A stretch of 64,000 bases of DNA from Eledone cirrhosa (taxonomy: Eukaryota). Made by a program: the position numbers and the translations under genes. Of the stretch, positions 597 through 59,135 are shown one piece after another. The notes under the pieces were generated by a model, which was not told where the DNA came from, searched no databases, and worked only from the letters and a program-made list of their open reading frames with translations. The stretch covers positions 201,872,001 through 201,936,000 of the forward strand of contig OZ024743.1 of the NCBI GenBank assembly GCA_964016885.1. The letters are read 5' to 3'. Numbering within the stretch: position 1 is the first letter of the stretch; each line of letters begins with the position of its first letter.

Positions 597-681
<85 letters not shown>

Positions 682-805
682 GTAGGAGGTGAGTTTTATT
701 GTAGCACAATAAAGTAATTCAAATATCGAATAAGTAGCACTTTACAGTTTGTAGGACTGGAGTATAAATAATATAAGATCGAAAGATGGTTAAAAGAGTT
801 CCAAG

Positions 806-876
806 TATTTTATTATGCGCATTTCAAAAACAAATATCATCATGAGATGATATCTGCGTTTTCATCAGATAAAATA
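806..876 (-). ncRNA. Type I hammerhead ribozyme in inverted pLTR
   Basis: Reverse complement of the HHR at 4705-4775. Confidence 0.85.
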
Positions 877-1917
877 GGGATACAAGATATGAAGCTTAAA
901 AAACACTTGTGAATAGTGAAGTTTTAAATCAACATATGAAAAATAATTTAAGATTGATGTGTGATATTGGGAAAAAGTGAGTGGGGTGTTGGAAAAGGTA
1001 AGGAATAGGAGGAGATGAGAGTAAAGAATGGTGGGGTAGGAGTATAAGAAGGAAGGATGAGAGAGGAGGAGAGATGGGTAATAGAGAGAGAGAGAGAGAT
1101 AGCCTTTACAACTGAGAAAAATATATATTGTCTCACAGAGAGAAGTTAAAAAGCCGTTGGAAGATAATAGATAATTTAAAAGAATTTGAAATTAAAAGTT
1201 AATGAGGTTTATGCATAAAGAGAAAAAGGGATTAAGAATAATATTAAATTAAGGTTTGTATATTGAAGGGTTTAATACTACGTGCGAGGAAAAAGAAATT
1301 ATTAATATGTATTATTAAAATAAAAATATTAATGTTATTAAGGATATAATGTGAAAAGAAGTAAAAGAATGAATGAGTTGTGAATTTAGAGGAATTAGTT
1401 AGTGTTTAAGTTTGTTTTTATGTAATCTAATATATGTGCGTAATATATGTACGTAAATAGTTTGTTTAAAAATGAGCGTAGAAAGCAAAGATGAAAAGAA
1501 TGTTTAAGGAAGAAAAATATCTAACATCAAAAAATATATATGTTTACGAAATATTTTCTAATGGTAATAATATAATATATTAAAGGAATTAGTTAGGGTT
1601 TAAGTTTGTTTTTATGTAAAAGTCAAACGAGCATGAAAGGAAGAAATAAGGAATTTAAGGAAGAAAAATCTAACGTAAAAAAAAGGTTTATGTTTACGAA
1701 GGACTATTAAAGGTAATACTATAATGTATTTAAAAAAAAAAATTTATGGCCAATGATATGAAGAAAGATGGAAGAATGGATAATGTTGTGGTGAGTAATA
1801 ATAAGAATTGAGAAGTAGTTAGGAAGAAAAAGTTCAGATTAGAGGTTAGAAATTAGAAAGAAAAGAGGAAGAAAGGAAAGTGATAAAGATGAATGATATA
1901 GAATGAGTAACATCTGA

Positions 1918-2699
1918 AGTAATTGGCTGGTTCAACAACCTGAATAAGAAAAACAAACAAAAATTTATTCAATTTGATATTGCCAGCTACTATTCTTCTA
2001 TTTCGCCTTCACTTCTCAACAATTCTCTATCTTTCGCATTTATATATTCTGACACCACCACAGATGAACTTCACCTCATTCTCACCGCAAGAAAAATCAT
2101 CTTAGAATTCAACAATGAATACTTCCAACAACTTTGATATCACAATGGCTGCTTCCGATTCATCGCAATTGACTGATTTGATTGGTATTTTTATTTTGAA
2201 TTCTTTAAATCGGAAAATTCCTCAACTTCGCGGTGGAATTTATCGTGACGATGGACTCTTTACTATCTTAAATTGCAATTTAGTTAACCTTAATATTATT
2301 AAGAACAATATACGTGATCTCTTTGAGCAACATAACCTTAAAATCGAATTTGATAACAACGTCAAACTAGCTAACTTCTTGGATATATCCCTTAATCTTG
2401 ATACTGTCCTATATTACCCTTACCATAAAAACAATGAGAATCTAAATTATGTTAATTTTAAATCTAACCACCCCACTAACATTAAAAATGCTACACTCAG
2501 TAATATTGGAAAAAGAATATCAAACCTATCCTCTAATAAAAATATCTTTGATGCTAACGCTAATTACTATAATAATGCGCTTTCTAAAGCCGGTTATCCT
2601 GATAAAATTAAATACAGTAAAGAAACCAATCCTAGAAGGTCTTACAGTAAAATAATTAATTATGATCATTCCAAAAACTTAAATAAAAGACCTAGATAA
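1918..2699 (+). pseudogene. PLE reverse transcriptase remnant (frameshifted)
   Basis: FIQFDIASYYSSIS (motif A), FDITMAASDS (motif B), IYRDDG (motif C), NFLDI, SNHP thumb motif. Confidence 0.9.
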
Positions 2700-2980
2700 A
2701 AAAAAATAATATTCCTAAACTATTCTTTAGGGCTTTAGATAAATGCTTCCCTCCCTCACATATCTATAGTAAAATCTTTAACAAACATACAATAAAATTT
2801 TCCTATTCCACCTCCTCCAACATCTCTAACATTATCTCTAAACACAACAATGAAATATTAAATATTAAATCACATCCTTCCAACACTGAGCGTCATAATA
2901 ATAGCAGTAGTACTCCCCACGTCATTGTTAACTCTAGGCTAGATTCTGCAAACTCAAATACGACGTAAAACGTAACTTCG

Positions 2981-3541
2981 TTGAATATTCATAATACCAA
3001 TCTAGATCAGGAAACTATTATTCCTATCGTAAATAATTTCTCCAATCCAATTCCTCCTATAAATAACACTAGGTCACTTGTTAATAACTCTGTTAATCTC
3101 TCTAATCGCAATTGTAATTGCCCTGTTAGAACTAAATGTCCTCTCAATAACCATTGTCTTGATAAAAACTTAGTCTATGAATGTAAGGTTATAACTGATA
3201 CCAATTCCTTTACCTATTTCGGTTCCACTTCCACCTCCTTCAAAAATAGATTTTATAATCACAATTTATCTTTTAGATACCAACTTAAAAGAACTAACAC
3301 GGCACTCTCAGAACTCATATGGTCCTTGAAAGACATAAATATTAACTATAACATCTCTTGGAGAAAAATTTGTTATGCCTCTCCCTACTTGAATGCCTCC
3401 CTATCCAGAACATGTAATCTTTGCCTATCTGAAAAATTTACCATTATATCTAATCTCAATTCCATAATAAATAGGAGCACTCATTTATTTTCTCTCTGCT
3501 TGCATAAATTCCACAAAACATTCCATAAAGTATACAGCTAA
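2981..3541 (+). pseudogene. Naiad-type GIY-YIG endonuclease with upstream Cys cluster
   Basis: CNCPVRTKCPLNNHCL..LVYEC..YFGST..FKNRFYNH..CNLCLSEK..CLHK. Confidence 0.88.
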
Positions 3542-4704
3542 TATCTAAAACCTTACTAGTTTAAAATCCTTTTTCTCAAAGGATTATATATCTTATAAAA
3601 ATATACCCATCTTTCTACCTTATTTCAATATTATTTATTATATATTATATAATACAAGTTACTCATTCTATATCATTCCTCTTTATCACTTTCCTTTCTT
3701 CCTCTTTTCTTTCTAATTTCTAACCTCTAATCTGAACTTTTTCTTCCTAACTACTTCTCAATTTTTATTATTACTCACCACAACATTATCCATTCTTCCA
3801 TCTTTCTTCATATCATTGGATATAACATTTAAAAAAAAACAAAAACATTATAGTATTACGTTTAATAGTCCTTCGTAAACATAAACCTTTTTTTTACGTT
3901 AGATTTTTCTTCCTTAAATTCCTTATTTCTTCCTTTCATGCTCGTTTGACTTTTACATATTACAATACATAAAAACAAACTTAAACCCTAACTAATTCCT
4001 ATAATATATTATATTACCATTAGAAAATATTTCGTAAACATATATATTTTTTGATGTTAGATATTTTTCTTCCTTAAACATTCTTTTCATCTTTGCTTTC
4101 TGCGCTCATTTTTAAACAAACTATTTACGTACATGTATTACGCACACATATTACATTACATAAAAACAAACTTAAACACTAACTAATTCCTCTAAATTCA
4201 CAACTCATTCATTCTTTTACTTCTTTTCACATTATATCCTAAATAACATTAATATTTTTATTTTAATAATACCTATTAATAATTTCTTTTTCCTCGCACG
4301 TATTATTAAACCCTTCAATATACAAACCTTAATTTAATATTATTCTTAATCCCTTTTTCTCTTCATGCATAAACCTCATTAACTTTTAATTTCAAATTCT
4401 TTAAAATTATCTATTATCTTCCAACGGCTTTTTAACTTCTCTCTGTGAGACAATATATATTTTTCTCAGTTGTAAATGCTATGTCTCTCTCTCTTTCTAT
4501 CACCCATCTCTCCTCCTCTCTCATCCTTCCTTTTTATACTCCTACCCCACCATTCTTTACTCTCATCTCCTCCTATTCCTTACCTTTTCCAACACCCCCC
4601 TCACTTTTTCCCAATATCACACATCAATCTTAAATTATTTTTCATATGTTGATTTAAAACTTCACTATTCACAAGTGTTTTTTAAGCTTCATATCATGTA
4701 TCCC

Positions 4705-4775
4705 TATTTTATCTGATGAAAACGCAGATATCATCTCATGATGATATTTGTTTTTGAAATGCGCATAATAAAATA
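4705..4775 (+). ncRNA. Type I hammerhead ribozyme with long stem II in PLE 3' pLTR
   Basis: TATTTTAT CTGATGA [CAGATATCAT/ATGATATTTG stem] GAAA TGCGCA TA ATAAAATA; palindromic stem III. Confidence 0.87.
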
Positions 4776-4805
4776 CTTGGAACTCTTTTAACCATCTTTC
4801 GATCT

Positions 4806-4877
<72 letters not shown>

Positions 4878-16377: not shown

Positions 16378-16410
<33 letters not shown>

Positions 16411-21812: not shown

Positions 21813-21905
21813 CAAATATATTTATATATATATATATATACACATACGCACACATCACACGCAAAAACACATACACTCACATACGCACATATATATATGT
21901 ATATA

Positions 21906-22771
21906 AGAGGTGTGTAAGAAAAGTTCCAGGACTGATGTCACAAAAGATTTATTTCAAACCCAAACTTCACACTAAAAGTTTTCTCCTTCAAATAATCCCC
22001 CTGGAGTCTAATGTACTTTTCCATCTTTTTCTGCCACGCTTGCATCCACTCCTGGAAGGATTCTTCCGGCATCCTCCGCAGTTCCGTCGTCACAGCCTTT
22101 TTGATGTCGTCTACATCTTCAAAACGGGTCCCCTCCGGGTCGTACTCGAAGATCCATGACTCATCACCGGTGATGACTGTCCCTAGCATGTCTGGTTCGG
22201 TTTCAAGACGCTCGAGGATGTCCTGGCACACTTGCATGCGTCGACCCTTCTGGTCATCGTTCAGCAGTTTTGGCACCATCTTCTCGCAGACTTTCCGCAT
22301 GTCCAAATCTTCAGTGAGAATCTTCCAGACGCTGTCCCGATTCATGCCCAGCTCATTTGCCATCAGTCGAACAGTCAGCCGACGATCACTACACACCATC
22401 TGCCTGACGCGCTCAACGTTGACCTCAGTCCTGGTTGTTGAGGGCCTTCCGCTCCTGGGGTCATCTTGCAACTCTCAAAAACACGTGAGCGTGACATCGT
22501 CTCATCTCCATACACTTGCTGCAGCAATCCCAGTGCTTATGTGCCAGAAACTTCAAGTTTGTTCGTTGCTCTGTGCGCAATGCTTGACGACCTGAAACAG
22601 AGGACATGTATATAAAATTATGAAGAAAAAAGTTTGATCTCTTCAGAGAGCTAAGATTACAGTTACATACTCCAGGGGGATTACTTTGAAGGAGAAAACT
22701 CTTAGTGTGAAGTTTGGATTTGAAATAAATCTTTTGTGACATCAGTCCTGGAACTTTTCTGACACACCTCG
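21906..22771 (-). mobile_element. Internally deleted mariner transposon, ~100-bp TIRs, TA target duplication
   Basis: TA|aGAGGTGTGTAAGAAAAGTTCCAGGACTGATG...CATCAGTCCTGGAACTTTTCTGACACACCTCG|TA; ORF has DDPRSGRP, MVPKLL, ITGDESWIFEYDPE joined directly to GTRFEDVDDIK. Confidence 0.92.
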
Positions 22772-23087
22772 TATATAAACATATATATTTTTATGTGTGT
22801 GTGTCTGTGTTTGTAAGTGTGATGTGTGCGTACGAGTGTGTGTATGGTTATCACGCATTTAACGCGCTCTTAGATATTACGTTGTGAAAATATTTCTTAT
22901 TACTAATGTGAGGAAAAAAACTCAAATCGCCTCCGCTATGATTCTTTTCCGATAATTCTTTTCCTGGGGTTCTTCGAAATATAATTATGTCCAAGAGACA
23001 TAATTATATTTCGCTTTCATTTTGCATTTGAAAGTTTGTTGCACTTAACATACTATTGCTTCAGTGTAAAAAATACAATTGTGAACA

Positions 23088-27885: not shown

Positions 27886-28689
27886 GAAAAAATGAAATTT
27901 CATTTCTCACTCTTAGTACGGCCGATACTTAAATATAAGTATGTATACGTACATACATGTATGTATACAGACGTACAGTAGTATGTATATATATACATAT
28001 ATGCACACACACACACATATATATATGTACGTATGGGTTTACCGAACATTTATATTCATTTATTATAATGTTCGGTTTGTTTGTAAACAAACAGCCCGAA
28101 TTAAGCCGTACAGTGTTCGGCAACCATCGTTGCCCTTTTGTTCAACACTGACAAAGGAACGATGAACTAGTTTCAAGCTTATTAGCTATCCTCAGCACGG
28201 TATACCTCCTGTCAGATGATTGAACGTTTGAAAGTATATACTTTCCTTATGCATATTAACGGCTGAGCAGCCTAATTTGCTTATCGAGTGAGTTAGTCGG
28301 CCGGGCGTACTGAAAACGATAATTGGAAAAAATGAAATTTCATTTCTCACTCTTAGTACGACTGATACTTAAATATAAGTATGTATACGTACATACATAT
28401 ATGTATACAGACGTACAGTAGTATGTATATATATATTCATACATGCACACACATATATATATGTACGTATGGGTTTACCAAACATTTATTATAATGTTCG
28501 GTTTGTTTGTAAACAAACAGCTCGAATTAAGCCGTACAGTGTTCGGCAACCATTTTTGCCCTTTTGTTCAACACTGACAAAGGAACGATATACTAGTTTC
28601 AAGCTTATTAGCTATCGTCAGCACCGTATACCTTCCTGTCAGATGATTGAACGATGATTATAATAAATGTTCGGTAATCCCATACGTAC

Positions 28690-28720
<31 letters not shown>

Positions 28721-29216
28721 CATGTATGTATATATATTCATACTACTGTACGTCTGTATACATATATGTATGTACGTATACATACTTATATTTAAGTAAC
28801 AGCCGTACTAAGAGTGAGAAATGAAATTTCATTTTTTCCATTTAGCATTTTCGGTACGCCCGGCGCACTAACACACACGATATGCAAATTAGGTTGCTCA
28901 CCCGTTAATATGCATAAGGAAAGTATATACTTTCAAACGTTCGATCATCTGACAGCAAGATGTACGGTGCTGATGATAGCTAATAAGCTTGAAACTAGTT
29001 CATCGTTCCTTTGTCAGTGTTGAACAAAAGGGCAACGATCGTTGCCGAACACTGTACGGTTTAAATCGGGTTGTTTGTTTACAAACAAACCGAACATTAT
29101 AATAAATGTTTGGTAAACCCATACGTACATATATATATGTGTGTGCATGTATGAATATATATATACATAATACTGTACGTCTGTATACATATATGTATGT
29201 ACGTATACATACTTAA
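27886..29216. repeat. Divergent pair of family-A retrozyme-like repeats; HHRs at 28159-28201 (-), 28585-28627 (-), 28964-29006 (+)
   Basis: Homologous to 1-477; strand switch at ~28655; ACGGTG CTGATGA TAGCTAATAAGCTT GAAA CTAG TT CATCGT. Confidence 0.87.
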
Positions 29217-29389
29217 TTTTATCGTACGGCGTTGTTTGACCCAACAAGAGGTTTCCATAGTCAGGTAGCGAGTTCGCGAGAATTCTCATGCAGGTTATTC
29301 TTGGAGTAGTAAAAGAGTGAAGAATAACATGGTCACAGCCGACCATGTTATTCTCCACTCTAAACTAAAATTTGATCGTTTCAACACTT

Positions 29390-29567: not shown

Positions 29568-29573
<6 letters not shown>

Positions 29574-29959
29574 AGAAGCAGAAAATTGCTTATTGTGTTC
29601 CAGTTTCATGGACGGTTTCAACGTACGGTTAGGGGTAACTCCACAAGTTTGTAAGAATTCCGTTCAATCTTGGAGTATAAAGTATAAAAGAGAAAACAGA
29701 GGTAAGCATTAAGAGAAGGATTTTATCCAGGTATTTACGACCGTTTCATTGGTAAGTGCAACCTTATATTGCTATATTGCAAATAGGAGCCACTCATTTA
29801 TAATTGTTTTTCACGTCCAAATTTTCAAAATTTTGGACGTGAACAACAATTATCATTGAGTGGCTGCTATTTGCAATATAGCAACATAAGGTTGCACTTA
29901 CCAATGAAACGGTCATAAATACCTGGATAAAATCCTTCTCTTAATGCTTACCTGTGTTT

Positions 29960-29966
<7 letters not shown>
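29568..29966. mobile_element. Palindromic pLTR-like insertion with degenerate HHR between (TA)n tracts
   Basis: Imperfect palindrome 29689-29965 plus ~120-nt left tail; right arm has TTAT..TGA[stem]GAAA CGG TC ATAA. Confidence 0.6.
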
Positions 29967-30041
<75 letters not shown>

Positions 30042-30046
<5 letters not shown>

Positions 30047-33000
30047 TAAGTTAAAGATGTACATCCATATATGTATACTGAAATACTAGTATGTATATGA
30101 ATACACACACGTATACATATGTAGATGTACCAAGTTTTTTCACTGGTCACTTTACTGTGAGTGGCCAGCTATTCTGTATGTAAACACACAGACAAACCGG
30201 TTTTTAGAGTCATACTGGTTTTTGAGGAAACACCTTTCCTCTATTCTCTAGAAAGCCAGACAAGGAATATTGAACTAGTTTCGTTGTTGTTACAACTCAT
30301 CAGCAATATTTACCTATCTTCCGGCCTCTCTAGAGAATCGTAAAAGCACATATCGTTATATGCTTTTTCTATGAAAATTAGTAGTGGGCATACTAATTTG
30401 CATAGAGTGTGAGTAAGTACCGGTTCAACGGAGACGATAAAAACAAATAACGAAACGAAATTAAATTTTGTTTCATTTGTAACTCACTTTTGTATGACTG
30501 ACGCTTAAACAATTAAGTTAAAGATGTACATCCATATATGTATACTGAAATACTAGTATGTATATGAATACACACACGTATACATATGTAGATGTACCAA
30601 GTTTTTTCACTGGTCACTTTACTGTGAGTGGCCAGCTATTCTGTATGTAAACACACAGACAAACCGGTTTTTAGAGTCATACTGGTTTTTGAGGAAACAC
30701 CTTTCCTCTATTCTCTAGAAAGCCAGACAAGGAATATTGAACTAGTTTCGTTGTTGTTACAACTCATCAGCAATATTTACCTATCTTCCGGCCTCTCTAG
30801 AGAATCGTAAAAGCACATATCGTTATATGCTTTTTCTATGAAAATTAGTAGTGGGCATACTAATTTGCATAGAGTGTGAGTAAGTACCGGTTCAACGGAG
30901 ACGATAAAAACAAATAACGAAACGAAATTAAATTTTGTTTCATTTGTAACTCACTTTTGTATGACTGACGCTTAAACAATTAAGTTAAAGATGTACATCC
31001 ATATATGTATACTGAAATACTAGTATGTATATGAATACACACACGTATACATATGTAGATGTACCAAGTTTTTTCACTGGTCACTTTACTGTGAGTGGCC
31101 AGCTATTCTGTATGTAAACACACAGACAAACCGGTTTTTAGAGTCATACTGGTTTTTGAGGAAACACCTTTCCTCTATTCTCTAGAAAGCCAGACAAGGA
31201 ATATTGAACTAGTTTCGTTGTTGTTACAACTCATCAGCAATATTTACCTATCTTCCGGCCTCTCTAGAGAATCGTAAAAGCACATATCGTTATATGCTTT
31301 TTCTATGAAAATTAGTAGTGGGCATACTAATTTGCATAGAGTGTGAGTAAGTACCGGTTCAACGGAGACGATAAAAACAAATAACGAAACGAAATTAAAT
31401 TTTGTTTCATTTGTAACTCACTTTTGTATGACTGACGCTTAAACAATTAAGTTAAAGATGTACATCCATATATGTATACTGAAATACTAGTATGTATATG
31501 AATACACACACGTATACATATGTAGATGTACCAAGTTTTTTCACTGGTCACTTTACTGTGAGTGGCCAGCTATTCTGTATGTAAACACACAGACAAACCG
31601 GTTTTTAGAGTCATACTGGTTTTTGAGGAAACACCTTTCCTCTATTCTCTAGAAAGCCAGACAAGGAATATTGAACTAGTTTCGTTGTTGTTACAACTCA
31701 TCAGCAATATTTACCTATCTTCCGGCCTCTCTAGAGAATCGTAAAAGCACATATCGTTATATGCTTTTTCTATGAAAATTAGTAGTGGGCATACTAATTT
31801 GCATAGAGTGTGAGTAAGTACCGGTTCAACGGAGACGATAAAAACAAATAACGAAACGAAATTAAATTTTGTTTCATTTGTAACTCACTTTTGTATGACT
31901 GACGCTTAAACAATTAAGTTAAAGATGTACATCCATATATGTATACTGAAATACTAGTATGTATATGAATACACACACGTATACATATGTAGATGTACCA
32001 AGTTTTTTCACTGGTCACTTTACTGTGAGTGGCCAGCTATTCTGTATGTAAACACACAGACAAACCGGTTTTTAGAGTCATACTGGTTTTTGAGGAAACA
32101 CCTTTCCTCTATTCTCTAGAAAGCCAGACAAGGAATATTGAACTAGTTTCGTTGTTGTTACAACTCATCAGCAATATTTACCTATCTTCCGGCCTCTCTA
32201 GAGAATCGTAAAAGCACATATCGTTATATGCTTTTTCTATGAAAATTAGTAGTGGGCATACTAATTTGCATAGAGTGTGAGTAAGTACCGGTTCAACGGA
32301 GACGATAAAAACAAATAACGAAACGAAATTAAATTTTGTTTCATTTGTAACTCACTTTTGTATGACTGACGCTTAAACAATTAAGTTAAAGATGTACATC
32401 CATATATGTATACTGAAATACTAGTATGTATATGAATACACACACGTATACATATGTAGATGTACCAAGTTTTTTCACTGGTCACTTTACTGTGAGTGGC
32501 CAGCTATTCTGTATGTAAACACACAGACAAACCGGTTTTTAGAGTCATACTGGTTTTTGAGGAAACACCTTTCCTCTATTCTCTAGAAAGCCAGACAAGG
32601 AATATTGAACTAGTTTCGTTGTTGTTACAACTCATCAGCAATATTTACCTATCTTCCGGCCTCTCTAGAGAATCGTAAAAGCACATATCGTTATATGCTT
32701 TTTCTATGAAAATTAGTAGTGGGCATACTAATTTGCATAGAGTGTGAGTAAGTACCGGTTCAACGGAGACGATAAAAACAAATAACGAAACGAAATTAAA
32801 TTTTGTTTCATTTGTAACTCACTTTTGTATGACTGACGCTTAAACAATTAAGTTAAAGATGTACATCCATATATGTATACTGAAATACTAGTATGTATAT
32901 GAATACACACACGTATACATATGTAGATGTACCAAGTTTTTTCACTGGTCACTTTACTGTGAGTGGCCAGCTATTCTGTATGTAAACACACAGACAAACC

Positions 33001-33425
33001 GGTTTTTAGAGTCATACTGGTTTTTGAGGAAACACCTTTCCTCTATTCTCTAGAAAGCCAGACAAGGAATATTGAACTAGTTTCGTTGTTGTTACAACTC
33101 ATCAGCAATATTTACCTATCTTCCGGCCTCTCTAGAGAATCGTAAAAGCACATATCGTTATATGCTTTTTCTATGAAAATTAGTAGTGGGCATACTAATT
33201 TGCATAGAGTGTGAGTAAGTACCGGTTCAACGGAGACGATAAAAACAAATAACGAAACGAAATTAAATTTTGTTTCATTTGTAACTCACTTTTGTATGAC
33301 TGACGCTTAAACAATTAAGTTAAAGATGTACATCCATATATGTATACTGAAATACTAGTATGTATATGAATACACACACGTATACATATGTAGATGTACC
33401 AAGTTTTTTCACTGGTCACTTTACT
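30042..33425 (-). repeat. 467-bp retrozyme-like tandem array, block 1 (~7.2 units, 7 HHRs on minus strand)
   Basis: Exact 467-bp period; HHR at 30266-30310 + n*467. Confidence 0.95.
30266..30310 (-). ncRNA. Minimal type I hammerhead ribozyme (first of 7 minus-strand copies)
   Basis: Reverse complement of 33832-33876. Confidence 0.9.
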
Positions 33426-36400
33426 AGAGAATAGAGGAAAGGTGTTTCCTCAAAAACCAGTATGACTCTAAAAACCGGTTTGTCTGTGTGTTTACATACA
33501 GAATAGCTGGCCACTCACAGTAAAGTGACCAGTGAAAAAACTTGGTACATCTACATATGTATACGTGTGTGTATTCATATACATACTAGTATTTCAGTAT
33601 ACATATATGGATGTACATCTTTAACTTAATTGTTTAAGCGTCAGTCATACAAAAGTGAGTTACAAATGAAACAAAATTTAATTTCGTTTCGTTATTTGTT
33701 TTTATCGTCTCCGTTGAACCGGTACTTACTCACACTCTATGCAAATTAGTATGCCCACTACTAATTTTCATAGAAAAAGCATATAACGATATGTGCTTTT
33801 ACGATTCTCTAGAGAGGCCGGAAGATAGGTAAATATTGCTGATGAGTTGTAACAACAACGAAACTAGTTCAATATTCCTTGTCTGGCTTTCTAGAGAATA
33901 GAGGAAAGGTGTTTCCTCAAAAACCAGTATGACTCTAAAAACCGGTTTGTCTGTGTGTTTACATACAGAATAGCTGGCCACTCACAGTAAAGTGACCAGT
34001 GAAAAAACTTGGTACATCTACATATGTATACGTGTGTGTATTCATATACATACTAGTATTTCAGTATACATATATGGATGTACATCTTTAACTTAATTGT
34101 TTAAGCGTCAGTCATACAAAAGTGAGTTACAAATGAAACAAAATTTAATTTCGTTTCGTTATTTGTTTTTATCGTCTCCGTTGAACCGGTACTTACTCAC
34201 ACTCTATGCAAATTAGTATGCCCACTACTAATTTTCATAGAAAAAGCATATAACGATATGTGCTTTTACGATTCTCTAGAGAGGCCGGAAGATAGGTAAA
34301 TATTGCTGATGAGTTGTAACAACAACGAAACTAGTTCAATATTCCTTGTCTGGCTTTCTAGAGAATAGAGGAAAGGTGTTTCCTCAAAAACCAGTATGAC
34401 TCTAAAAACCGGTTTGTCTGTGTGTTTACATACAGAATAGCTGGCCACTCACAGTAAAGTGACCAGTGAAAAAACTTGGTACATCTACATATGTATACGT
34501 GTGTGTATTCATATACATACTAGTATTTCAGTATACATATATGGATGTACATCTTTAACTTAATTGTTTAAGCGTCAGTCATACAAAAGTGAGTTACAAA
34601 TGAAACAAAATTTAATTTCGTTTCGTTATTTGTTTTTATCGTCTCCGTTGAACCGGTACTTACTCACACTCTATGCAAATTAGTATGCCCACTACTAATT
34701 TTCATAGAAAAAGCATATAACGATATGTGCTTTTACGATTCTCTAGAGAGGCCGGAAGATAGGTAAATATTGCTGATGAGTTGTAACAACAACGAAACTA
34801 GTTCAATATTCCTTGTCTGGCTTTCTAGAGAATAGAGGAAAGGTGTTTCCTCAAAAACCAGTATGACTCTAAAAACCGGTTTGTCTGTGTGTTTACATAC
34901 AGAATAGCTGGCCACTCACAGTAAAGTGACCAGTGAAAAAACTTGGTACATCTACATATGTATACGTGTGTGTATTCATATACATACTAGTATTTCAGTA
35001 TACATATATGGATGTACATCTTTAACTTAATTGTTTAAGCGTCAGTCATACAAAAGTGAGTTACAAATGAAACAAAATTTAATTTCGTTTCGTTATTTGT
35101 TTTTATCGTCTCCGTTGAACCGGTACTTACTCACACTCTATGCAAATTAGTATGCCCACTACTAATTTTCATAGAAAAAGCATATAACGATATGTGCTTT
35201 TACGATTCTCTAGAGAGGCCGGAAGATAGGTAAATATTGCTGATGAGTTGTAACAACAACGAAACTAGTTCAATATTCCTTGTCTGGCTTTCTAGAGAAT
35301 AGAGGAAAGGTGTTTCCTCAAAAACCAGTATGACTCTAAAAACCGGTTTGTCTGTGTGTTTACATACAGAATAGCTGGCCACTCACAGTAAAGTGACCAG
35401 TGAAAAAACTTGGTACATCTACATATGTATACGTGTGTGTATTCATATACATACTAGTATTTCAGTATACATATATGGATGTACATCTTTAACTTAATTG
35501 TTTAAGCGTCAGTCATACAAAAGTGAGTTACAAATGAAACAAAATTTAATTTCGTTTCGTTATTTGTTTTTATCGTCTCCGTTGAACCGGTACTTACTCA
35601 CACTCTATGCAAATTAGTATGCCCACTACTAATTTTCATAGAAAAAGCATATAACGATATGTGCTTTTACGATTCTCTAGAGAGGCCGGAAGATAGGTAA
35701 ATATTGCTGATGAGTTGTAACAACAACGAAACTAGTTCAATATTCCTTGTCTGGCTTTCTAGAGAATAGAGGAAAGGTGTTTCCTCAAAAACCAGTATGA
35801 CTCTAAAAACCGGTTTGTCTGTGTGTTTACATACAGAATAGCTGGCCACTCACAGTAAAGTGACCAGTGAAAAAACTTGGTACATCTACATATGTATACG
35901 TGTGTGTATTCATATACATACTAGTATTTCAGTATACATATATGGATGTACATCTTTAACTTAATTGTTTAAGCGTCAGTCATACAAAAGTGAGTTACAA
36001 ATGAAACAAAATTTAATTTCGTTTCGTTATTTGTTTTTATCGTCTCCGTTGAACCGGTACTTACTCACACTCTATGCAAATTAGTATGCCCACTACTAAT
36101 TTTCATAGAAAAAGCATATAACGATATGTGCTTTTACGATTCTCTAGAGAGGCCGGAAGATAGGTAAATATTGCTGATGAGTTGTAACAACAACGAAACT
36201 AGTTCAATATTCCTTGTCTGGCTTTCTAGAGAATAGAGGAAAGGTGTTTCCTCAAAAACCAGTATGACTCTAAAAACCGGTTTGTCTGTGTGTTTACATA
36301 CAGAATAGCTGGCCACTCACAGTAAAGTGACCAGTGAAAAAACTTGGTACATCTACACATGTATACGTGTGTGTATTCATATACATACTAGTATTTCAGT

Positions 36401-38835
36401 ATACATATATGGATGTACATCTTTAACTTAATTGTTTAAGCGTCAGTCATACAAAAGTGAGTTACAAATGAAACAAAATTTAATTTCGTTTCGTTATTTG
36501 TTTTTATCGTCTCCGTTGAACCGGTACTTACTCACACTCTATGCAAATTAGTATGCCCACTACTAATTTTCATAGAAAAAGCATATAACGATATGTGCTT
36601 TTACGATTCTCTAGAGAGGCCGGAAGATAGGTAAATATTGCTGATGAGTTGTAACAACAACGAAACTAGTTCAATATTCCTTGTCTGGCTTTCTAGAGAA
36701 TAGAGGAAAGGTGTTTCCTCAAAAACCAGTATGACTCTAAAAACCGGTTTGTCTGTGTGTTTACATACAGAATAGCTGGCCACTCACAGTAAAGTGACCA
36801 GTGAAAAAACTTGGTACATCTACATATGTATACGTGTGTGTATTCATATACATACTAGTATTTCAGTATACATATATGGATGTACATCTTTAACTTAATT
36901 GTTTAAGCGTCAGTCATACAAAAGTGAGTTACAAATGAAACAAAATTTAATTTCGTTTCGTTATTTGTTTTTATCGTCTCCGTTGAACCGGTACTTACTC
37001 ACACTCTATGCAAATTAGTATGCCCACTACTAATTTTCATAGAAAAAGCATATAACGATATGTGCTTTTACGATTCTCTAGAGAGGCCGGAAGATAGGTA
37101 AATATTGCTGATGAGTTGTAACAACAACGAAACTAGTTCAATATTCCTTGTCTGGCTTTCTAGAGAATAGAGGAAAGGTGTTTCCTCAAAAACCAGTATG
37201 ACTCTAAAAACCGGTTTGTCTGTGTGTTTACATACAGAATAGCTGGCCACTCACAGTAAAGTGACCAGTGAAAAAACTTGGTACATCTACATATGTATAC
37301 GTGTGTGTATTCATATACATACTAGTATTTCCGTATACATATATGGATGTACATCTTTAACTTAATTGTTTAAGCGTCAGTCATACAAAAGTGAGTTACA
37401 AATGAAACAAAATTTAATTTCGTTTCGTTATTTGTTTTTATCGTCTCCGTTGAACCGGTACTTACTCACACTCTATGCAAATTAGTATGCCCACTACTAA
37501 TTTTCATAGAAAAAGCATATAACGATATGTGCTTTTACGATTCTCTAGAGAGGCCGGAAGATAGGTAAATATTGCTGATGAGTTGTAACAACAACGAAAC
37601 TAGTTCAATATTCCTTGTCTGGCTTTCTAGAGAATAGAGGAAAGGTGTTTCCTCAAAAACCAGTATGACTCTAAAAACCGGTTTGTCTGTGTGTTTACAT
37701 ACAGAATAGCTGGCCACTCACAGTAAAGTGACCAGTGAAAAAACTTGGTACATCTACATATGTATACGTGTGTGTATTCATATACATACTAGTATTTCAG
37801 TATACATATATGGATGTACATCTTTAACTTAATTGTTTAAGCGTCAGTCATACAAAAGTGAGTTACAAATGAAACAAAATTTAATTTCGTTTCGTTATTT
37901 GTTTTTATCGTCTCCGTTGAACCGGTACTTACTCACACTCTATGCAAATTAGTATGCCCACTACTAATTTTCATAGAAAAAGCATATAACGATATGTGCT
38001 TTTACGATTCTCTAGAGAGGCCGGAAGATAGGTAAATATTGCTGATGAGTTGTAACAACAACGAAACTAGTTCAATATTCCTTGTCTGGCTTTCTAGAGA
38101 ATAGAGGAAAGGTGTTTCCTCAAAAACCAGTATGACTCTAAAAACCGGTTTGTCTGTGTGTTTACATACAGAATAGCTGGCCACTCACAGTAAAGTGACC
38201 AGTGAAAAAACTTGGTACATCTACATATGTATACGTGTGTGTATTCATATACATACTAGTATTTCAGTATACATATATGGATGTACATCTTTAACTTAAT
38301 TGTTTAAGCGTCAGTCATACAAAAGTGAGTTACAAATGAAACAAAATTTAATTTCGTTTCGTTATTTGTTTTTATCGTCTCCGTTGAACCGGTACTTACT
38401 CACACTCTATGCAAATTAGTATGCCCACTACTAATTTTCATAGAAAAAGCATATAACGATATGTGCTTTTACGATTCTCTAGAGAGGCCGGAAGATAGGT
38501 AAATATTGCTGATGAGTTGTAACAACAACGAAACTAGTTCAATATTCCTTGTCTGGCTTTCTAGAGAATAGAGGAAAGGTGTTTCCTCAAAAACCAGTAT
38601 GACTCTAAAAACCGGTTTGTCTGTGTGTTTACATACAGAATAGCTGGCCACTCACAGTAAAGTGACCAGTGAAAAAACTTGGTACATCTACATATGTATA
38701 CGTGTGTGTATTCATATACATACTAGTATTTCAGTATACATATATGGATGTACATCTTTAACTTAATTGTTTAAGCGTCAGTCATACAAAAGTGAGTTAC
38801 AAATGAAACAAAATTTAATTTCGTTTCGTTATTTG

Positions 38836-38842
<7 letters not shown>
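33424..38842 (+). repeat. 467-bp retrozyme-like tandem array, block 2 (~11.6 units, 11 HHRs on plus strand)
   Basis: Exact 467-bp period, inverted relative to block 1; HHR at 33832-33876 + n*467. Confidence 0.95.
33832..33876 (+). ncRNA. Minimal type I hammerhead ribozyme (first of 11 plus-strand copies)
   Basis: AATATTG CTGATGA GTTGT-aaca-ACAAC GAAA CTAG TT CAATATT: 7-bp stem I, 5-bp stem II, palindromic stem III, GUU triplet. Confidence 0.92.
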
Positions 38843-38880
<38 letters not shown>

Positions 38881-38944
38881 AAATATGTATATATATATAT
38901 ATATATATATAAATATGTATATATATATATATATATATAAATAT

Positions 38945-39042
<98 letters not shown>

Positions 39043-39254
39043 ATGTATGTATATGTGTATGAATTTGTTTCTCATGAGTCAGTTCTTTCGTTGCTACGGA
39101 CCCCGGCTGAATTACCAGTCGCTGTCTTCATTTTGCAAAGCCCTTTAAACTGTATGTTATTATTCTGAGGTCCTAGACATTGTCGAGTGCTTGGCTGCAC
39201 TGCTGAAAGCATTCCTCGGCTTAGCAAGGGCTCTGGTTTCGAATATGCTGTACT

Positions 39255-39805: not shown

Positions 39806-40348
39806 CTCAGGTTAATAGGAGTTAGGTATTGTACACCCGTGTCCCATTAAGGTATTGTACACCCGTGTCCCATTAAGGTATTGGCAGCATAATAATTAGC
39901 TCTATGCTTTGGAGCAGAGCCGTATATATGATAAAGAACACAAGACCGTCTACAACATCAAAAGATTTTTATTGGCTTACAATGTTTCTTCCTTACGTAA
40001 CCGTAGGATTCGTCAGAGCTATAAAAGGGGTTTGATTAGTGTTATGGACTCTACCAACCAAACATTCAAGAACAAAGAGTAAAGAGAGTAAAGAGCAAAA
40101 GCAGGGGACGATAAGTCTAATTTTGGTACGGGATGGTGGGGTGTGGGTCCTTGTTTACTAGCGGTGGTCATACTCATTCCCGGGAGTCGAGTGGTTAGTG
40201 GAGCCATAGATGGGGTGGCGTCGATAGTAGGGTGCAGAGGGTGTGCAGAGGCTACACACACACAAAGGGCATACAATATATATATAACGGAGGAGAAAGT
40301 ACATGAGGTAATTAGAAATGGAATAAGAGTAATAATAATAATCTATAA

Positions 40349-40437
40349 TTAATTGTTTCTACTTTAGGCACAAGGCCAGCAATTACCCAGTACATTACTG
40401 GTACTTTATTTTATCGACCCCGTAAGGATGAAAGGCA
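40349..40437 (-). mobile_element. SINE 3' half
   Basis: Reverse complement of 24768-24853. Confidence 0.8.
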
Positions 40438-42039
40438 ATAATTAATAATGTATAATAAGGCATGGGGAAGATTACACTATAATAAGGTATAAAAGTAAGA
40501 ATAAGGTAAAATATAAAGGAGGATAAGAGTGAAAATAAGAATAAAGATTAAAAAATATATATATAAAAAATATATAGAGAATATATAAAAAAATGTAGGC
40601 AAGTATTAGAAGGGAAAAACACAATGTAAAAAAACCGATTTTGTCAAATAAAAATATCATAAATATGGGGGGAGAAAACGGGATAGAGAAATATAATCAA
40701 ATGTTATTAGTTGAGAGAATATAAGATGATAATAGTTATGTCAAGTTTATACATCTTAATAATAAATAATCTGTATATCAGAGTTACACATCCTTCAATT
40801 CACTTGCAAGTTCAACCCACGTGGCATAGTCCATTGCTCATCTGTGCGGTCGTGTGCGTTTGTTTTTGACACCACAGCAGATGCACAAGTTCGTAAATTT
40901 CAATGCAGATATAAATTTATTTTTGCTCACCCAGACATTGACGGAGGATCCAATATTCCTAGTTCATTGCCGACCCAATATGTGTGTGGTGTTATTTTGG
41001 TCGCACAAATCAATCACTTGCTTCAATATTGTGGAGTATGGTTTTCTGGTCTTCGTTACACTATCAGTGGTTGTATATCTCGAAATCACAAGGATCACAG
41101 TACTCCGGTTTGGTGTGATTATCGGTCATCCAACTATGTTGTCGGTGGTTGGATTCAATTCTATTTCCCAGAACGTAGAACTTTGGTGTTGATTGAACAT
41201 TAACGAGGCAGAGTGAGATTGCATCTGTGGTACAAAACGGTACGCAAGGAAATTCTTCGTCTTCGTTTCATCCGGGTCTAGCAGTCACGTGCAAGAACCG
41301 TACGTAGTAATTGTGAGGGTAAGCGGTCAAGATAGTAACTGACCGAAAATTTTCTTGGGAATTCATACAGGCATGACAGGTACATTTAGGTCAGCAGTTT
41401 CTTCATGTGTACGTGTGTCCGATACACACATACACATATTTATATGTATTTCAACTAAAAAAATTCAATTGATTCGCTTATTGATATTATATCTCTGTTG
41501 CTCCGATGTGCATGTTGTGATGTTCTGGTCGTGTTTACCATTGACTGTGTTTTGCCATTACCTTGGAATGTGATGTTTTGGTCATCAATAGTCCGGCAAG
41601 CGCATTCCTCTCTTATATTGTGGAGAATGGTGTTCTGGTCCTCAGTAAACATTTGGGTCAGCAGGAGGGGTGGTGGTTCTCAGTTTCAACTGCGACAATA
41701 CATATGTGTTACTCTACATATCATGCTCCTCTCAAAGAAGAGTATTATAGGAGGAATTCATGCCAAACATCACATATAGAGAAGACTTCTACAGAAAAAA
41801 TATATATACATACACACATATATACATATCATACACACACATACACATATATACACATATACATACACACATATATACATATCATATATACACACACATA
41901 CAATATATATGTATATAATATACATATATATATATAATATATATATGTATACAATATACATACACATGCATGTATGCATGTACACATGCACACCTATATA
42001 CATATGTGTGTGTGTATGTATGTGTGAGAGAAAAGGAGA

Positions 42040-42077
<38 letters not shown>

Positions 42078-42229
42078 AAACACAAACCTTGTAGGGGACT
42101 GTTCCACCCATAGGCTACCTATCTATCTGGTTTATGGGTTGGGGGAGTTATAGTCAAGGAGGGGTATGTCTAGGTGGGGGTTGCGTAATATATGTTACGT
42201 CTATGTGCTACGTTTAAAATAGAAGAAGG

Positions 42230-43290
42230 AACTCAGGATTTTGTGTTGGCAAGAGGAGAAAATATCCGATTTCCTGTTAAGCAGGTTCAGTTTAGAGTGT
42301 ATTATGGCATGGCATTCTAGTAAACACAGGTCACAACTCCCGCTCTGCGGTCGGTATGGTGTGTAGTATGCTTCCTCCAAAAAAGTTTGTATGGGGTATT
42401 ATTATTTTTTAAAAAGGAGATGTATCCCGCCAGTGAGGTGGCATTCTTATGTCTATCGTGTCTAAATGTGCACATATGCGCGTTATAACTAGTTTTAAAT
42501 GTATTGGACGTTGATACTATATATGTTTTGGTAGTGTTGTGTGTGGTTACGTCACATGCATATACGATGTTTTTCATGAGGCAAGCCCCCCTTAGGGGAC
42601 AGTTATTACTCTGCATACAATTGCAACTGCGGGTTCGATCAGTTAGCGTACCTCCCGAACTTTGGTTACTAGCATTATCACTAGGTGCCTCTATATCATT
42701 AGATGGCTCAGTGATGCTATTATGTTGCCTATTTTCCAGTGTAGTCGGTTGCTGGTGGTTAACTGCCATTTTAATTGTTTCGAAACCTTCCCTAGTTTTC
42801 CTAATGTTCGTGCATGCTAGGTGTGATGCGAGGTTAGGAGTGGTCGAATAGGATAATTTAATCACGTTTTTGTTAATTATGTTGCGACATCTATTGCCTG
42901 GTGGGAAGTTTTTTTCTAATAATGAGAAGAATACTCTGGGGAGGTTAGTGAGGACCTCAGAATTAAAAGGTGGGTTAAAATACATGTTTTTCCTTCTTCT
43001 ATTTGTCTTATCTGTGGGGTGAGTCTCATTACTGTGCGTACTATTTTGTAGGGTTCCGTTATTAACGTTAGTGGCGTTGTCTGTTTTGCTTATGCCCGGA
43101 TGGTTTATATTCATGGCATGATCATTTGCTGCTTTAGAGTTGTGGTGAGGGACTCTAGTATTGTCTCTACGTGGTTTACATTTAGCTGGGTTAGCGCCAT
43201 TAGGGTTCTAACTATTATTCTTGCCTCTACGTTGGTTAGGCTTTGTGGCCATACTATGTGTGATTATGTTGGTAGGTTTCACACTCATGG
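42230..43290 (-). pseudogene. Naiad linker + GIY-YIG endonuclease remnant
   Basis: YFNPPFNSEVLTN, IKLSYSTTPNL, CNCMQSNNCPLRGACL..IVYAC..YIVST..FKTSYNAH. Confidence 0.87.
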
Positions 43291-43805
43291 TTTGGGAGTC
43301 CTTTACTCTTTTTACTCTTTGTTCTTGAATGTTTGGTTGGTAGAGTCCATAACACCAATCAAACCCCTTTTATAGCTCTGAAGAATCCTACGGTTACGTA
43401 AGGAAGAAACATTGTAAGCCAATAAAAATCTTTTGATGTTGTAGACGCTCTTGTGTTCTTTATCATATACATATATATGTATGTATATATGTATATATAT
43501 ATATATGTATGTGTGTGACGGTCTATCTGTGTGTGTGGATACAGAGTGATAGCTTCAAGTGAAACAAAGGAATAATTCACACATAACATGGAAATTGGGA
43601 ATATATATATATCACAGGAATGACTTATTTCTGCAATTCCAAACAATCCCGTGGGCGTAAATAGTTCAACCCGTTCATAAGCCATTAAACGAAATGTTTT
43701 ATTTAAAAGCATCTGAGAGATTTGGACATATCTACGCCAACGAAACCGTTTGGTAATGCATAAATACCATAAAAAATTTAAAACACTAATATATAAATAA
43801 ATAAC

Positions 43806-46860: not shown

Positions 46861-49040
46861 TAGAAGCGTTCAAAACGAACGCAGAAACGCGCGCACAGAA
46901 GCACAGAACAACGTGCACACCAAAAACACGCACATAATATTGCACAAAAGGCGCAAAACGCACGAAAAGTGCACATGAAAGCGCACAAAAATACGCACAT
47001 AGAAGCACACAAAACAAACGCAGAAACGCGCACACAAAGCCAAACGAACCAGGCGCACATAAAACGCACAAACAGTGCACACGAAAGCGCACAGAGACGC
47101 GCATATAAAGTCGCAAAAAACGCGCACAAAAAACGCACAAAAATGCACATGAAAGCACACAAAAACGCGCACATAAAATTTCACAAATCGTGCACATGAA
47201 ATCACAACACAGAAGCGCACACAAAAGCGAACATAAAACGACAAAATATGCACATGAAAGCGCAGAAAGGCGCGCACATAAAATCTATACAAAAGCGCAC
47301 ATAAAACGCACCAAAAGTGCACATGACTGCGCACAAAAACGCACAGATAAAAGCCCACAACAATGCTCACATAGAAGCGCACAAAACGACCGCAGAAACG
47401 CACACACAGGAGCACACAACAAGGTACAAAGAAAAACGCGCCCATAAAACAAAACGCACAAAAAATGCACATGAAAACTCACAAAAACGCGCACATAAAA
47501 TCGCAAACAAAAGCGCACATGAAACGCACAAAAAGCGCACAAAAGTGCACAAAAATGAGCATATAGAAGCGCACAAAACGAACACAGAAACGCGCACACA
47601 GAACCACACAACAAACCCACACAAAAAACGCACAAAGAGTGCACATGAAAGCGCACATATAGTCGCACAAAACGCGCATATAAAACGCACAAAAAATGCA
47701 CATGAGAGCACACAAAAACGCGCCATGAAATTGCACAAAACGTGCACATAAAATCGCACACAAAAGCGCACACAAAACGCACATGAAATCGCACAATAAC
47801 GCGCAACTAGAAGCGCACAAAAACGCGCACATAGAAGAAGAACGCACAAAAAGTGAACATGGAAGCGCACAAAACTTGTACATAAACTCGCACACAAAAG
47901 CGCACACAAAACGCACATGAAATCGCACAATAACGCGCACCTAGAAGCGCACAAAAACGCGCACATAGAAGAAGAACGCACAAAAAGTGCACATGGAAGC
48001 GCACATAAAGGCGTCGAAAAATGTGCTCATAGAAGCGCACAAAACGAGCGCAAAACGCGCACATAAAATCGCAGAACACGCGCACATAAAACGCATACAA
48101 ATGCACATGAAAGCACACAAAGACGCGCACGTAATATCACACAAAAATGCGCACATAGAAACGCACAAAAAACGCAAAAACGCACAGACACATACAAAAA
48201 GGCGCACAAAAAATATACATGAAAGCAAACGAAAACGTGCAAATCAAAATGCACGAAATCACACATAAAATGCACAAGAAGTGCACACGAACGGAGAAAC
48301 GCGCATATAAAAGCGGAAATAAAACGCACAACAATGCACATAAAAGCGCTCAAAATGCGCACATAAAATCGCACAAAAAGCGCAGAGAAAACGCACAAAC
48401 AATGAACATGAAAGCCCAGAAAAAGGCGCAAATAAAAGCCCACATAGAAGTCCACAAATCGCGCACAAAAAATGCGCATGAAAGCGCACAAAAACGCACA
48501 GATAGAAGCGCACAAAAAGTGCATATAGAAGCGCACAAAAACGCGCACATAAAAGCGCACATAATCCACACCAAATGCACATGAAAGCGCACAAATACGC
48601 GCACATAAAATCGCACAGCACGCGCACATAAAACGCACAAAAATGCATATGAAATCACAAAAAAACGCGCACATAAAATTGCAAAAATGCGCACATAAAA
48701 TCATACACAAAAGCGCACATATAACGCACAAAACGTGCCCATGAAAGCGCACAAAAACACGCACATATAAGCGCACAAAATGAACGCGGAAACTCGCCCA
48801 CGGAAGCAAACAAAAAAACTTGCCCATAAAACCCACCAACAGTGCACATGAAAGCGCACAAAGACGGGCACATAAAGTCACACAAAATGCGCACATAAAA
48901 CGCACAAAAAATGTCCGCCCATGAAAGCACACAAAAACGCGCACATAAATTCCCACAGAACGCGCACATAAAACGCAAAAAAAAAAACTGCACATGAAAG
49001 CGCACAAAGACGCGCACAAAACGAACGCAAAAACGCGCAT
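46860..49040. repeat. Degenerate minisatellite of ~11-12-bp GCGCACA(T)AAAA-type units
   Basis: 2.2 kb of GCACA/GCGCAC motifs alternating with A-tracts; strongly T-depleted plus strand. Confidence 0.9.
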
Positions 49041-52000
49041 ACAGAAGTGCGGCCACAGAAAGAGTATGACCCTGGCACTTGTTGATGGACATAACAAAAC
49101 TGACAGGAAGCGGAAATTGAAGTCTTCGGAAGGTGAAAGGAATTTCTGCTCACGAGGTGATGAGAGGAATTCTCGGAATGAAGACATCATCACCTTTTCC
49201 GCATCCAGGAAGGATTGTTGCCTCGATTACATGTGCCATCAATTCTTTTACAGCTAGGTGTCTCCCGTACACAGTCTTGGTGGTTCCAAATTCCCCAGCA
49301 GAATACAGGGTTGCCAACTTTAAGGAGAAGCATGTGAATTGTGGAACTCCGGCGGAAAGTTCACCACTTCATTGGGATCTGGCATCGTGTCAACAGATTT
49401 GTAAGTGTGAAGAACACCAGGAAGGGAGTGCAGTAGTTGATAGTTGGTTTTGTTAACAGCGACGTTCTTTGGAGCTAGCACTGCTCTTTCACCCAACCAT
49501 GTGGTTCTGGTAATTGTCTCTCAAATCTAGAAACACTTTGTCTTTCAGCTCCCCGCAGAATTAACTAAGGTCGAAAATGGCCACACTTCCAGCTCTCCTG
49601 CAGCGTCCAGAAGTATTTTGCCGTTGCCAAGTTTCAAAATGTCGTGTGCAAATTCCGCGGACATTTGGTCGCCGTGTAATTGAGCTCTCATGTTGGTGGT
49701 AAGAATCAGTGTCCTGACATGGCGCCACAGAGGCGAGGACTTTAGGCATGCTTGGACCTCTTCTGCTCTTGTGTTTTTGGGAATGACGGGAAGTGTCTGC
49801 CTGAAGTCACCCGAAAGCAGAAGCGTAACACCTCCCATGGGAGCCTGGCAGCCTCTGATGTCCTTTAGAGCTCTGTTTAATGCGTCCAGAGTTCTCTTAT
49901 GGGCTATGGTGCACTCATCCCAATCAATGAGCTGACATCGTTTTAGGACTTGGCCCTGGTCGGAGGTCTTGCTGATGCTGCAAGTAGGCGTTTCTGACGT
50001 TGTTAAATGGAGAGGCAATTTAAAACTGGAGTGGGCGGTCCTGCCACAGGGCAACAAAGTGGCAGCAATTCCAGAAGAGGCAACAGCAACCGCAATGTCC
50101 TTGTGCATCCTGACTTTTGCAAGGAGGAGTCTCGTTAAAAATGTTTTGTCCGTCCCTGCAGGATCATCCCGAAAGAACATCCCCCTTTTCTGTGGCGCAC
50201 ATGGTCGGCAACGATGGTGTAAGCACGACGTTGGTCCGGAAGAAGTTGTGGTTCAGTTTCAAGGATGTACTTGGTAAGAGCATCGACGTCGTAGGACGTT
50301 TCTCGGATAAGAGCTGTAGGAAGTACGTTTGACCCTGTACGGATCGTTTGGGGCAGACAATATGAGGGCAAATAATTTCCGCCGAGTGATGCAACTCTAT
50401 CCTCTATGTCAATCAATGCTAGATTGAAGACCTCGTCGCTGGTATGTTCCATCTCAGGGTTCTGCACTTGCGCCTGACGTTTGTAGTCCCCGGATAAGTC
50501 ATCTTTATACTTGAGCCACAAAGAGATAGGATTACTCAGTTCGCAAGTTTGCAGCAGTACTGATGAGATGCAGCACTTCGAATAAAGTGGCATCCCACTG
50601 CGCACCGTCTTCTAGTAGGCCGCGCTTGAAGCAAGCTTCCCTGTAAGTGCTGCACATGGAACCGTCGGCAGTTCTAAGGTCATGAAAGGACTGGCGTCCT
50701 CTTACCTCATGTAGCAGAAGACGGAAGTAGAAGCACTCTTGCTGGTTCGGGTGCACTGTGTAATCTCTCCCTAGACAAATGTCAAACTTTATGCCAGGAT
50801 GTCCATCAATAGGCTGACCTGCCTTTCTGCGAGCCCATTGTTGTTTATTCCATGTGTAATAGGCCGACACCTGAGGATACAGCAGGGTTTGAGCAAATGA
50901 ATCGGCCTGATAAAATTTGAAGAATGCAGTGAGGGTGGTTTCCCGTGGTTCCTCGACCATTTGAGCAACATTAACGTCAGTGAATTACACCCTTTGACCG
51001 TTCTGATGGTGGACTGCGAGCTGTTCAATTGCAGGGTGCCTTTGGTGTATAGAGAAGCCAAAAATACGCCAGAAAGCCTCGTTGCTGCTGATGCAACGGC
51101 CAACTTGGTATTGCGTGACTTCATCACGGCTGTTGTCCTGTTGAAGACCGAACATAGCAGCCTCGGAATCCTTATTCACATATTTACATATGTACTTGAT
51201 TGACTTGACGGAATTACAGAACTCGACATTGATGTGAGCACCGAAGGTCTTAGAAATAAATGGGCAGTATGGCACTCTCCACCTGTTGTCGACCTCGTGC
51301 TGTTCAACTATTGCTGTAAAACCACCGTCTCCGGGATGACGTCGGCTGTACAGTGGGTATTCGTCAACGCCAGTCTGGGTTTCTTGGAGGAACTTTCGGG
51401 GAAATCTTTTGCTTCAGACATTGTTGTTCAAGTAGGGTGAGCTTAAATTGAAACCCCGCCCACATGGACTATGGACAATGTTTCTCTCAACTATATCATA
51501 GAGCTCTTTGTCTATAGACGGATCTGGAAACTCTGCGGAGATGATGCTGTCAATGTCATTTGAAGATATTTTTGTTGACAGCCAAATGAGGATGTCGGCG
51601 TGCGGTTGGCCCCTCTTCTGCCACTCTACGGTGTACATGTCGCACTTTACTGGGCCAAAGACTTTCCCTCTCTTGATGAGCTCCATAAGATTGATAAGCT
51701 TCGGCCGAAAGATTCCGGCCAGGAGGTCATGCCTGTCTTTGGCCTGTTGCCCTTGGAACATTTCTGCCCCGATCTCCTTCCACTTTGGATTGCAAGTGAA
51801 TGTGATGAACAGATCGGGCCTGCCGTAATACCGTACGTAGGTCATAGCATCCTGCGTTCTCTCGTGTATGTAGCGCGGACTTCCATGAAGGTGGAGAGGA
51901 GAATGCAGACTTTTACTACGCTGCTGGGAGCTGCGTCATTGTTGATGGCATCTCGGAGATGGATGTAGCTCTCGGACTGCAGTTGCCTTTGGTTTGACCG

Positions 52001-55220: not shown

Positions 55221-55223
<3 letters not shown>

Positions 55224-56934: not shown

Positions 56935-59135
<2,201 letters not shown>

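Follow-up and report, generated by a model that had tools for sequence, protein, structure and literature searches.

An 8.8-kb array in the Eledone cirrhosa genome, in which a 467-bp unit is repeated in two opposed blocks between two (TA)n tracts with a single strand flip, is a young retrozyme array, its unit carrying a hammerhead ribozyme, and was probably inserted in one event by the reverse transcriptase-endonuclease of a Penelope-like element (PLE) priming from both cut strands of the (TA)n target. The array lies in a window of 64,000 nucleotides (contig OZ024743.1 of assembly GCA_964016885.1, positions 201,872,001 to 201,936,000 of the forward strand; coordinates below count from the first letter of this window), across which ribozyme-bearing insertions in (TA)n are abundant. 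Its flip is the head-to-head 5' inversion already published for PLEs, and not a new phenomenon. The identity of the enzyme that moves animal retrozymes has been argued from co-occurrence and pLTR similarity; an array that bears the PLE insertion footprint in full speaks for PLEs more directly, and also for the insertion of ready-made multi-unit copies. No description of such a footprint on a retrozyme multimer was found in searches of the openly accessible literature and in the main texts of the two retrozyme papers cited below.

Structure of the array and of its unit

The array opens at a (TA)n target tract (29966..30041), continues as block 1 (30042..33425, minus strand, 3384 bp, 7.25 units) and block 2 (33424..38842, plus strand, 5419 bp, 11.60 units), and closes at a (TA)n-rich target tract (38843..39054), neither tract being assigned a strand. 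Tandem Repeats Finder reports the 467-bp period at 30042-33425 and 33419-38842. In a unit-by-unit comparison the total of 18.85 units shows 2 differences over 8.8 kb: the units of block 1 are identical (0 differences between them), and the variants of block 2, at 36358 and 37332, are each confined to one unit. By exact comparison, block 1 is the reverse complement of the block-2 unit.

Numbered so that u1 is 33424, block 2 has its 5' end at u1 and its 3' end, the long one, at u282; in block 1 the 5' end is at u96 (33425) and the 3' end, the short one, at u210 (30042). The two 5' ends meet head to head at 33424..33425, where exact block comparison gives a CT overlap; the strand switch with CT microhomology that the earlier note placed at about 33424 is confirmed and falls at these two positions, and it links non-equivalent points of the unit (u1 and u96), as that note had also stated. 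A gapped 6-of-7 match (CTTT[A]CT against CTTTCT) widens the overlap leftward to 33419, and there is no TA at the junction. Both outer 3' ends abut (TA)n, and the leftward reading of block 1 and rightward reading of block 2, with 3' ends directed into (TA)n, are borne out by the ribozymes, 7 of which lie on the minus strand (block 1) and 11 on the plus strand (block 2). The inequality of the two 3' ends, u210 on the left and u282 on the right, is a feature beyond those noticed before. Between the inverted arms lies a 93-bp spacer (33426..33518, plus strand, u3-u95), and a 3384-bp arm with a spacer of this length is a geometry that would allow a hairpin or cruciform.

The CT microhomology is not diagnostic, because 18% of 200,000 simulated random head-to-head joins of the unit show an overlap of 2 nt or more; at this chance level it was dropped as evidence for the mechanism of the junction. 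A TSD is unreadable within the (TA)n flanks of the array. Directly to the left, in the same (TA)n tract, a palindromic insertion (29689-29964) carries decayed ribozyme-like sequence with no canonical core.

The unit has a GC content of 0.33-0.35 (34%), and there is no frame of at least 100 aa within 30042-38770. No ORF for a reverse transcriptase or GIY-YIG endonuclease, by which an autonomous PLE would be recognized, was found in the array, and no tRNA gene was found in the unit. A hammerhead occurs 18 times in the 18.85 units (0 matches in 100 shuffles). In the first unit of block 2 it is a type I hammerhead with a short palindromic helix III (33832..33876, plus strand), whose predicted cut falls between 33869 and 33870 (u446/447), and in the junction-proximal unit of block 1 the ribozyme pattern lies at 33068..33112 (minus strand). 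The Rfam model HH9 matches the unit with 37.7 bits (E 9e-8), below its gathering threshold of 52, and at gathering thresholds Rfam gives 0 matches across the window; microRNA matches at loose Rfam thresholds were rejected as TA/CA-rich noise far under the cut-offs.

When the ribozyme is compared with 5 related copies in the window, 6 of its 12 pairs are changed on both sides (0 of 500 shuffles are as high); these compensatory changes fall in helices I and II, and they mostly separate two families and hence represent few independent events. The monomer is predicted to fold at -149.9 kcal/mol (z -9.95), a value reached by none of 100 shuffles. Hammerheads with a short palindromic helix III are of a type reported to act as a dimer in tandem repeats (PMC4209133).

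The 467-bp unit is a non-LTR retrozyme, a further member of that group. It is like the animal non-LTR retrozymes (Cervera and de la Pena 2020, PMC7229834; Li et al. 2026, bioRxiv 10.64898/2026.07.22.740005) in being non-coding, low in GC and tandem, in having one type I hammerhead per unit with a short palindromic helix III and strong self-pairing, and in forming dimers to large multimers beside PLE-type elements. At 467 bp the unit is just above the range of 150-450 bp given in PMC7229834 and within the 51-972 bp given in bioRxiv 10.64898/2026.07.22.740005. The likeness is one of DNA, the circular RNA and the cleavage of the animal retrozymes being predictions here. Neither of the two main texts contains an analysis of orientation, tails or junctions; the mover of retrozymes is named as LINEs or PLEs in the former (PMC7229834), and the mechanism of their mobilisation is described as still to be worked out in the latter (bioRxiv 10.64898/2026.07.22.740005).

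The unit family is dispersed and multi-copy, with diverged relatives within the window and 959 matching records in the public run X1, and part of the unit is contained in 20 of the 24 listed public runs, with no RNA run listed among those that contain it. Runs X1-X20, which contain part of the unit, bear 17 different organism labels (shares 0.17-0.68), and run X4 has it in just one contig, of 497 bases and one unit. Scans for the ribozyme pattern found 0 loci in metagenome contigs and 0 in viral contigs.

Inverted pairs, one-sided tails and family copies elsewhere

Eleven other inverted pairs from a self-BLAST of the window were examined, and in six of them each arm contains a ribozyme core: A (775-4806), B (11575-11896), C (28370-29221), E (39925-43469), F (55311-55685) and H (59609-60948). 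In all six the left core lies on the minus strand and the right core on the plus strand, that is, the 3' ends point outward as in the array; with the array included, the polarity is the same in 7/7 (p 0.008 at even odds). The remaining pairs (D, G, T1, M and N) stand outside this count because no ribozyme core lies within their arms. Pair N (5546-13204) is coreless, as is pair M (21845-22832), which we take to be a mariner-like element. Pair G (59125-59373), of a related retrozyme family, is head-to-head by homology, and one of its arms stops just past the ribozyme, at neither start site. Pair T1 (400-594), also of a related retrozyme family, is a tail-to-tail palindrome across (TA)16, so that two 3' ends meet in one target.

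Insertion A (680..4806, plus strand) is a broken PLE-type element with an inverted copy of its 3' end. RT-like and C-terminal GIY-YIG-like frames lie on its plus strand, and a 95-bp tail is present on the inverted arm only; since the tail is on the arm without an ORF and the ORF is on the arm without a tail, the arms are not DNA copies of one another. By their motifs, the frames in A, E and H read as a putative reverse transcriptase of PLE type or as C-terminal GIY-YIG. One 696-aa protein is matched by two frames of A, and among the Atlas neighbours of the PLE-type frames are clusters in which 19% of members carry RVT_1; Pfam gave no match for the PLE-type frames of the window nor for 4 homologues. 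A search restricted to longer proteins gave no match to the endonuclease-like frame, and an exhaustive search gave 4510 relatives. Self-comparison within the window found no sequence match between the 467-bp unit and the ORF-bearing elements.

Insertion C (27886..29217, unstranded) belongs to an older related retrozyme family with a unit of about 440 bp, arranged head-to-head with the long end on the left and the short end on the right. A mixed pair (57424..58160, likewise unstranded) places two different ribozyme families head-to-head between TA tracts: an antisense relative of the 467-bp unit and a sense element with a hammerhead of full-length helix III (57938), joined at about 57779 by a 30-bp hairpin and a GCA overlap; this is a single case and may represent two events.

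Extra sequence is found at exactly one end in all seven insertions measured, with lengths of 72-120 bp (A 95, B 97, D 120, E 115, F 90, H 109 and the array 72 bp). In the array this one-sided tail (38771..38842, plus strand, u211-u282) is at the right end only. The tails of A and B are homologous to each other and are thus element sequence; from a shared TACTCC-like motif we infer the same for those of D, E, F and H. This motif stands 7-13 nt past the short end in all six other tails (680-775, 11896-11993, 29569-29689, 39810-39925, 55221-55311 and 59500-59609; 90-120 bp, from five PLE-type families) and is absent from the tail of the 467-bp unit; it is possibly a conserved RT-start signal. A similar tail is seen at 29222-29330. 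Measured from the predicted ribozyme cut, the 3' ends of the array are 231 and 303 nt downstream, and related copies in the window end, in aligned positions, at about u205-214 (29217, 57424) or about u275 (480, 27886).

Four of the 24 listed public runs (X1, X4, X5 and X22) were compared with 33058-33519. The matching records of run X1 range in likeness from under 90 to 100%, and the Hi-C run X22 gave 0 matching reads with about 1 in 100 sampled. Among the nine joints listed in X1, four are normal unit continuity and five are antisense-to-sense inversions elsewhere in the unit; each inversion joint is one contig of depth 4-19 whose shorter side has 24-29 letters at a likeness of 88, from a library of unrecorded type. 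None of the nine is of opposite polarity. The orientation at other loci, which the earlier note proposed as a check, is accordingly non-random: the six pairs of the window and the five listed joints of X1 share one polarity, and 0 have the other. Four of the five inversion joints hold 3-7 extra letters, as end joining leaves. A run of TA stands immediately at u282 in 11 X1 records, which is the same long end as in block 2, and the short end u210 is absent among the loose ends listed in X1 (7 listed, 37 more).

One arm starts within u4-u59 (window 33427-33482) in all five listed inversion joints, and block 2 similarly starts from u1. These 5' ends lie just downstream of the predicted cut, around the long helix of the ribozyme. 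Uniformly placed 5' ends predict that about 63% of joints have both arms in the rest of the 33058-33519 layout, and 0 of those listed do (p ~0.004); the clustering may be due to reverse-transcriptase stalling or to a bias in what was listed.

The earlier note had also asked for reads across the junction. The junction is present in the assembly, from which alone it is known, but no record in X1, X4, X5 or X22 spans 33424-33425; the copies in X1, X4 and X5 depart from the array at three sites (33193, 33271 and 33277) and so need not represent its allele. An artefact of assembly or library, namely a fold-back chimeric read or a mis-join in a collapsed repeat, would account both for the lack of a spanning record in the public runs and for units that are near-identical, as in collapsed repeats. 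We nevertheless consider it very improbable, as the flanks of the array are not mirror images (their best match to each other is an old relative at 66-78%, which rules out a mirror-flank chimera), there is an offset of 95 nt between the arms, whose end phases differ, one of them being the family's recurrent end in another sample, and the older pairs of the window, with an arm identity of 88-98%, share the anatomy of the array.

Origin of the strand flip

PLE insertions are described as frequently bearing an inverted 5'-truncated copy and a tail of 30-40 bp at one end, with (TA)n as target, the origin of the inverted ends being called unresolved (PMC8557442). Head-to-head is given as the commonest arrangement of PLEs (PMC3846280), and in 2014 these elements were noted to have pairs of ribozymes on opposite strands (PMC4209133). 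A purified PLE protein, predicted to be a dimer, cuts AT-rich DNA on both strands and extends each of them; its two start sites are internal to the RNA and delimit the tail, and it acts in vitro without any need for ribozyme cleavage (PMC11167929). Because the protein cuts and extends both strands from two RNA start sites, priming on both strands followed by end joining is the likely origin of the flip.

The array is like EN+ PLEs (PMC8557442, PMC3846280, PMC11167929 and PMC4209133) in having an inverted 5'-truncated copy head-to-head, extra sequence at one end, a TA-microsatellite target, microhomology or a palindrome at the junction, and a type I hammerhead. Unlike them, it has no RT/endonuclease ORF, and its arms are multimers of 7 and 12 units instead of being pLTR-sized. 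The tail is also unlike that described for PLEs, at 72 bp in the array and 72-120 bp in the window as against 30-40 bp (PMC8557442).

The earlier note had attributed the flip to twin priming from a cut (TA)n site. Of this proposal, priming on two strands with a 5'-to-5' join is retained as the best reading, in view of the activity of the PLE protein, the polarity and the tail; twin priming of the L1 type is rejected. In L1 twin priming the second primer binds at an internal site, an upstream stretch of the same RNA forms the inverted piece, and the insertion has a poly(A) end and a TSD. On the reading favoured here, the array would share with it the use of two target 3' ends to prime two cDNAs, a 5'-to-5' join with microhomology and one inversion. 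It differs in that both of its arms begin at 3' start sites belonging to the element itself and there is no poly(A) end, and in A, E and H it is the 3' end, not an upstream segment, that the inverted arm repeats.

On the two-strand reading, the unit would be transcribed as a concatemer, or be cleaved by its ribozyme and circularised. A PLE protein, probably a dimer, would nick both strands of the (TA)n tract, and each 3' end would prime cDNA at one of the two internal sites, u282 and u210, leaving a tail on one side only. Each cDNA would then pass through several units of the concatemer or go round the circle, and the two cDNA ends would be joined via a few complementary bases, with host repair filling the gaps. 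Unit numbers may drift later by unequal exchange.

An unlikely alternative, also mediated by a PLE, needs a single priming: the first cDNA, or else an antisense RNA serving as template, would fold back at the CT/CTTT match and copy itself, and the endonuclease would resolve the far end. Self-priming on an antisense template has been proposed for head-to-head PLE repeats with junction palindromes (PMC3846280), and near-perfect palindromes are present at the junctions of B, D, F and G; block 1, which is shorter, identical in sequence and displaced by a loop of 93 bp, could have been copied from block 2. However, a fold-back copy would be expected to end at the same 3' end or anywhere, and block 1 stops at u210, as related copies do. 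Fold-back of cDNA is, moreover, impossible in either direction for insertion A, and the arms of 57424-58160 are non-homologous. These objections concern cDNA fold-back, and self-priming on antisense RNA is compatible with them.

That the array grew in place, from a small head-to-head seed or from two successive insertions in one (TA)n tract, by later unequal exchange or replication slippage, is quite improbable. Tandem amplification in place, starting from a PLE end, is discussed in bioRxiv 10.64898/2026.07.22.740005, and (TA)n tracts in the window have been hit repeatedly, the tail-to-tail pair across (TA)16 being an example. Against such growth, the junction is without TA, the phases at which the blocks start and end need a template of more than one unit before exchange can act, and the 18.85 units are of one haplotype with 2 unspread variants, whereas the X1 records vary from under 90 to 100% in likeness. 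The single haplotype and the two unspread variants favour the writing of all 19 units at once. As the earlier note held, unequal crossing-over is insufficient for the flip, which is beyond its reach, although it could have altered the number of units afterwards.

Within the favoured scheme of PLE-mediated priming on both strands, we tentatively entertain a more specific possibility, less probable than the scheme itself. An asymmetric PLE dimer may make two rolling-circle cDNAs on a ribozyme-made RNA circle of 467 nt, one per strand and always one per start site, and so produce the whole 8.8-kb inverted satellite in one event; its halves would be able to load different RNAs (57424-58160), and one cDNA would tend to stop at the long helix of the ribozyme. 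If this is true, a single process would explain why PLEs are inverted and tailed on one side and how satellite arrays with built-in hairpin RNA are born. With many young insertions in the genome, each with one long and one short end, both retrozyme mobilisation and the formation of PLE ends are testable.

Other repeats in the window

The transposon content of the window is that of an animal, and its repeats appear similar to those of octopus genomes. Broken LINE-type elements with RVT_1 matches occupy 7000-10200 and 13200-16400. At 46900-49100 and 49500-53200, a degenerate 2-kb repeat of the AAAAGCGCAC type adjoins broken frames that presumably resemble Helitron Rep/helicase. At 61028-62581, beginning at a (TA)n tract, there is a direct duplication of about 1 kb, the copies of which (61028-61587 and 62025-62581) are 97.5% identical.
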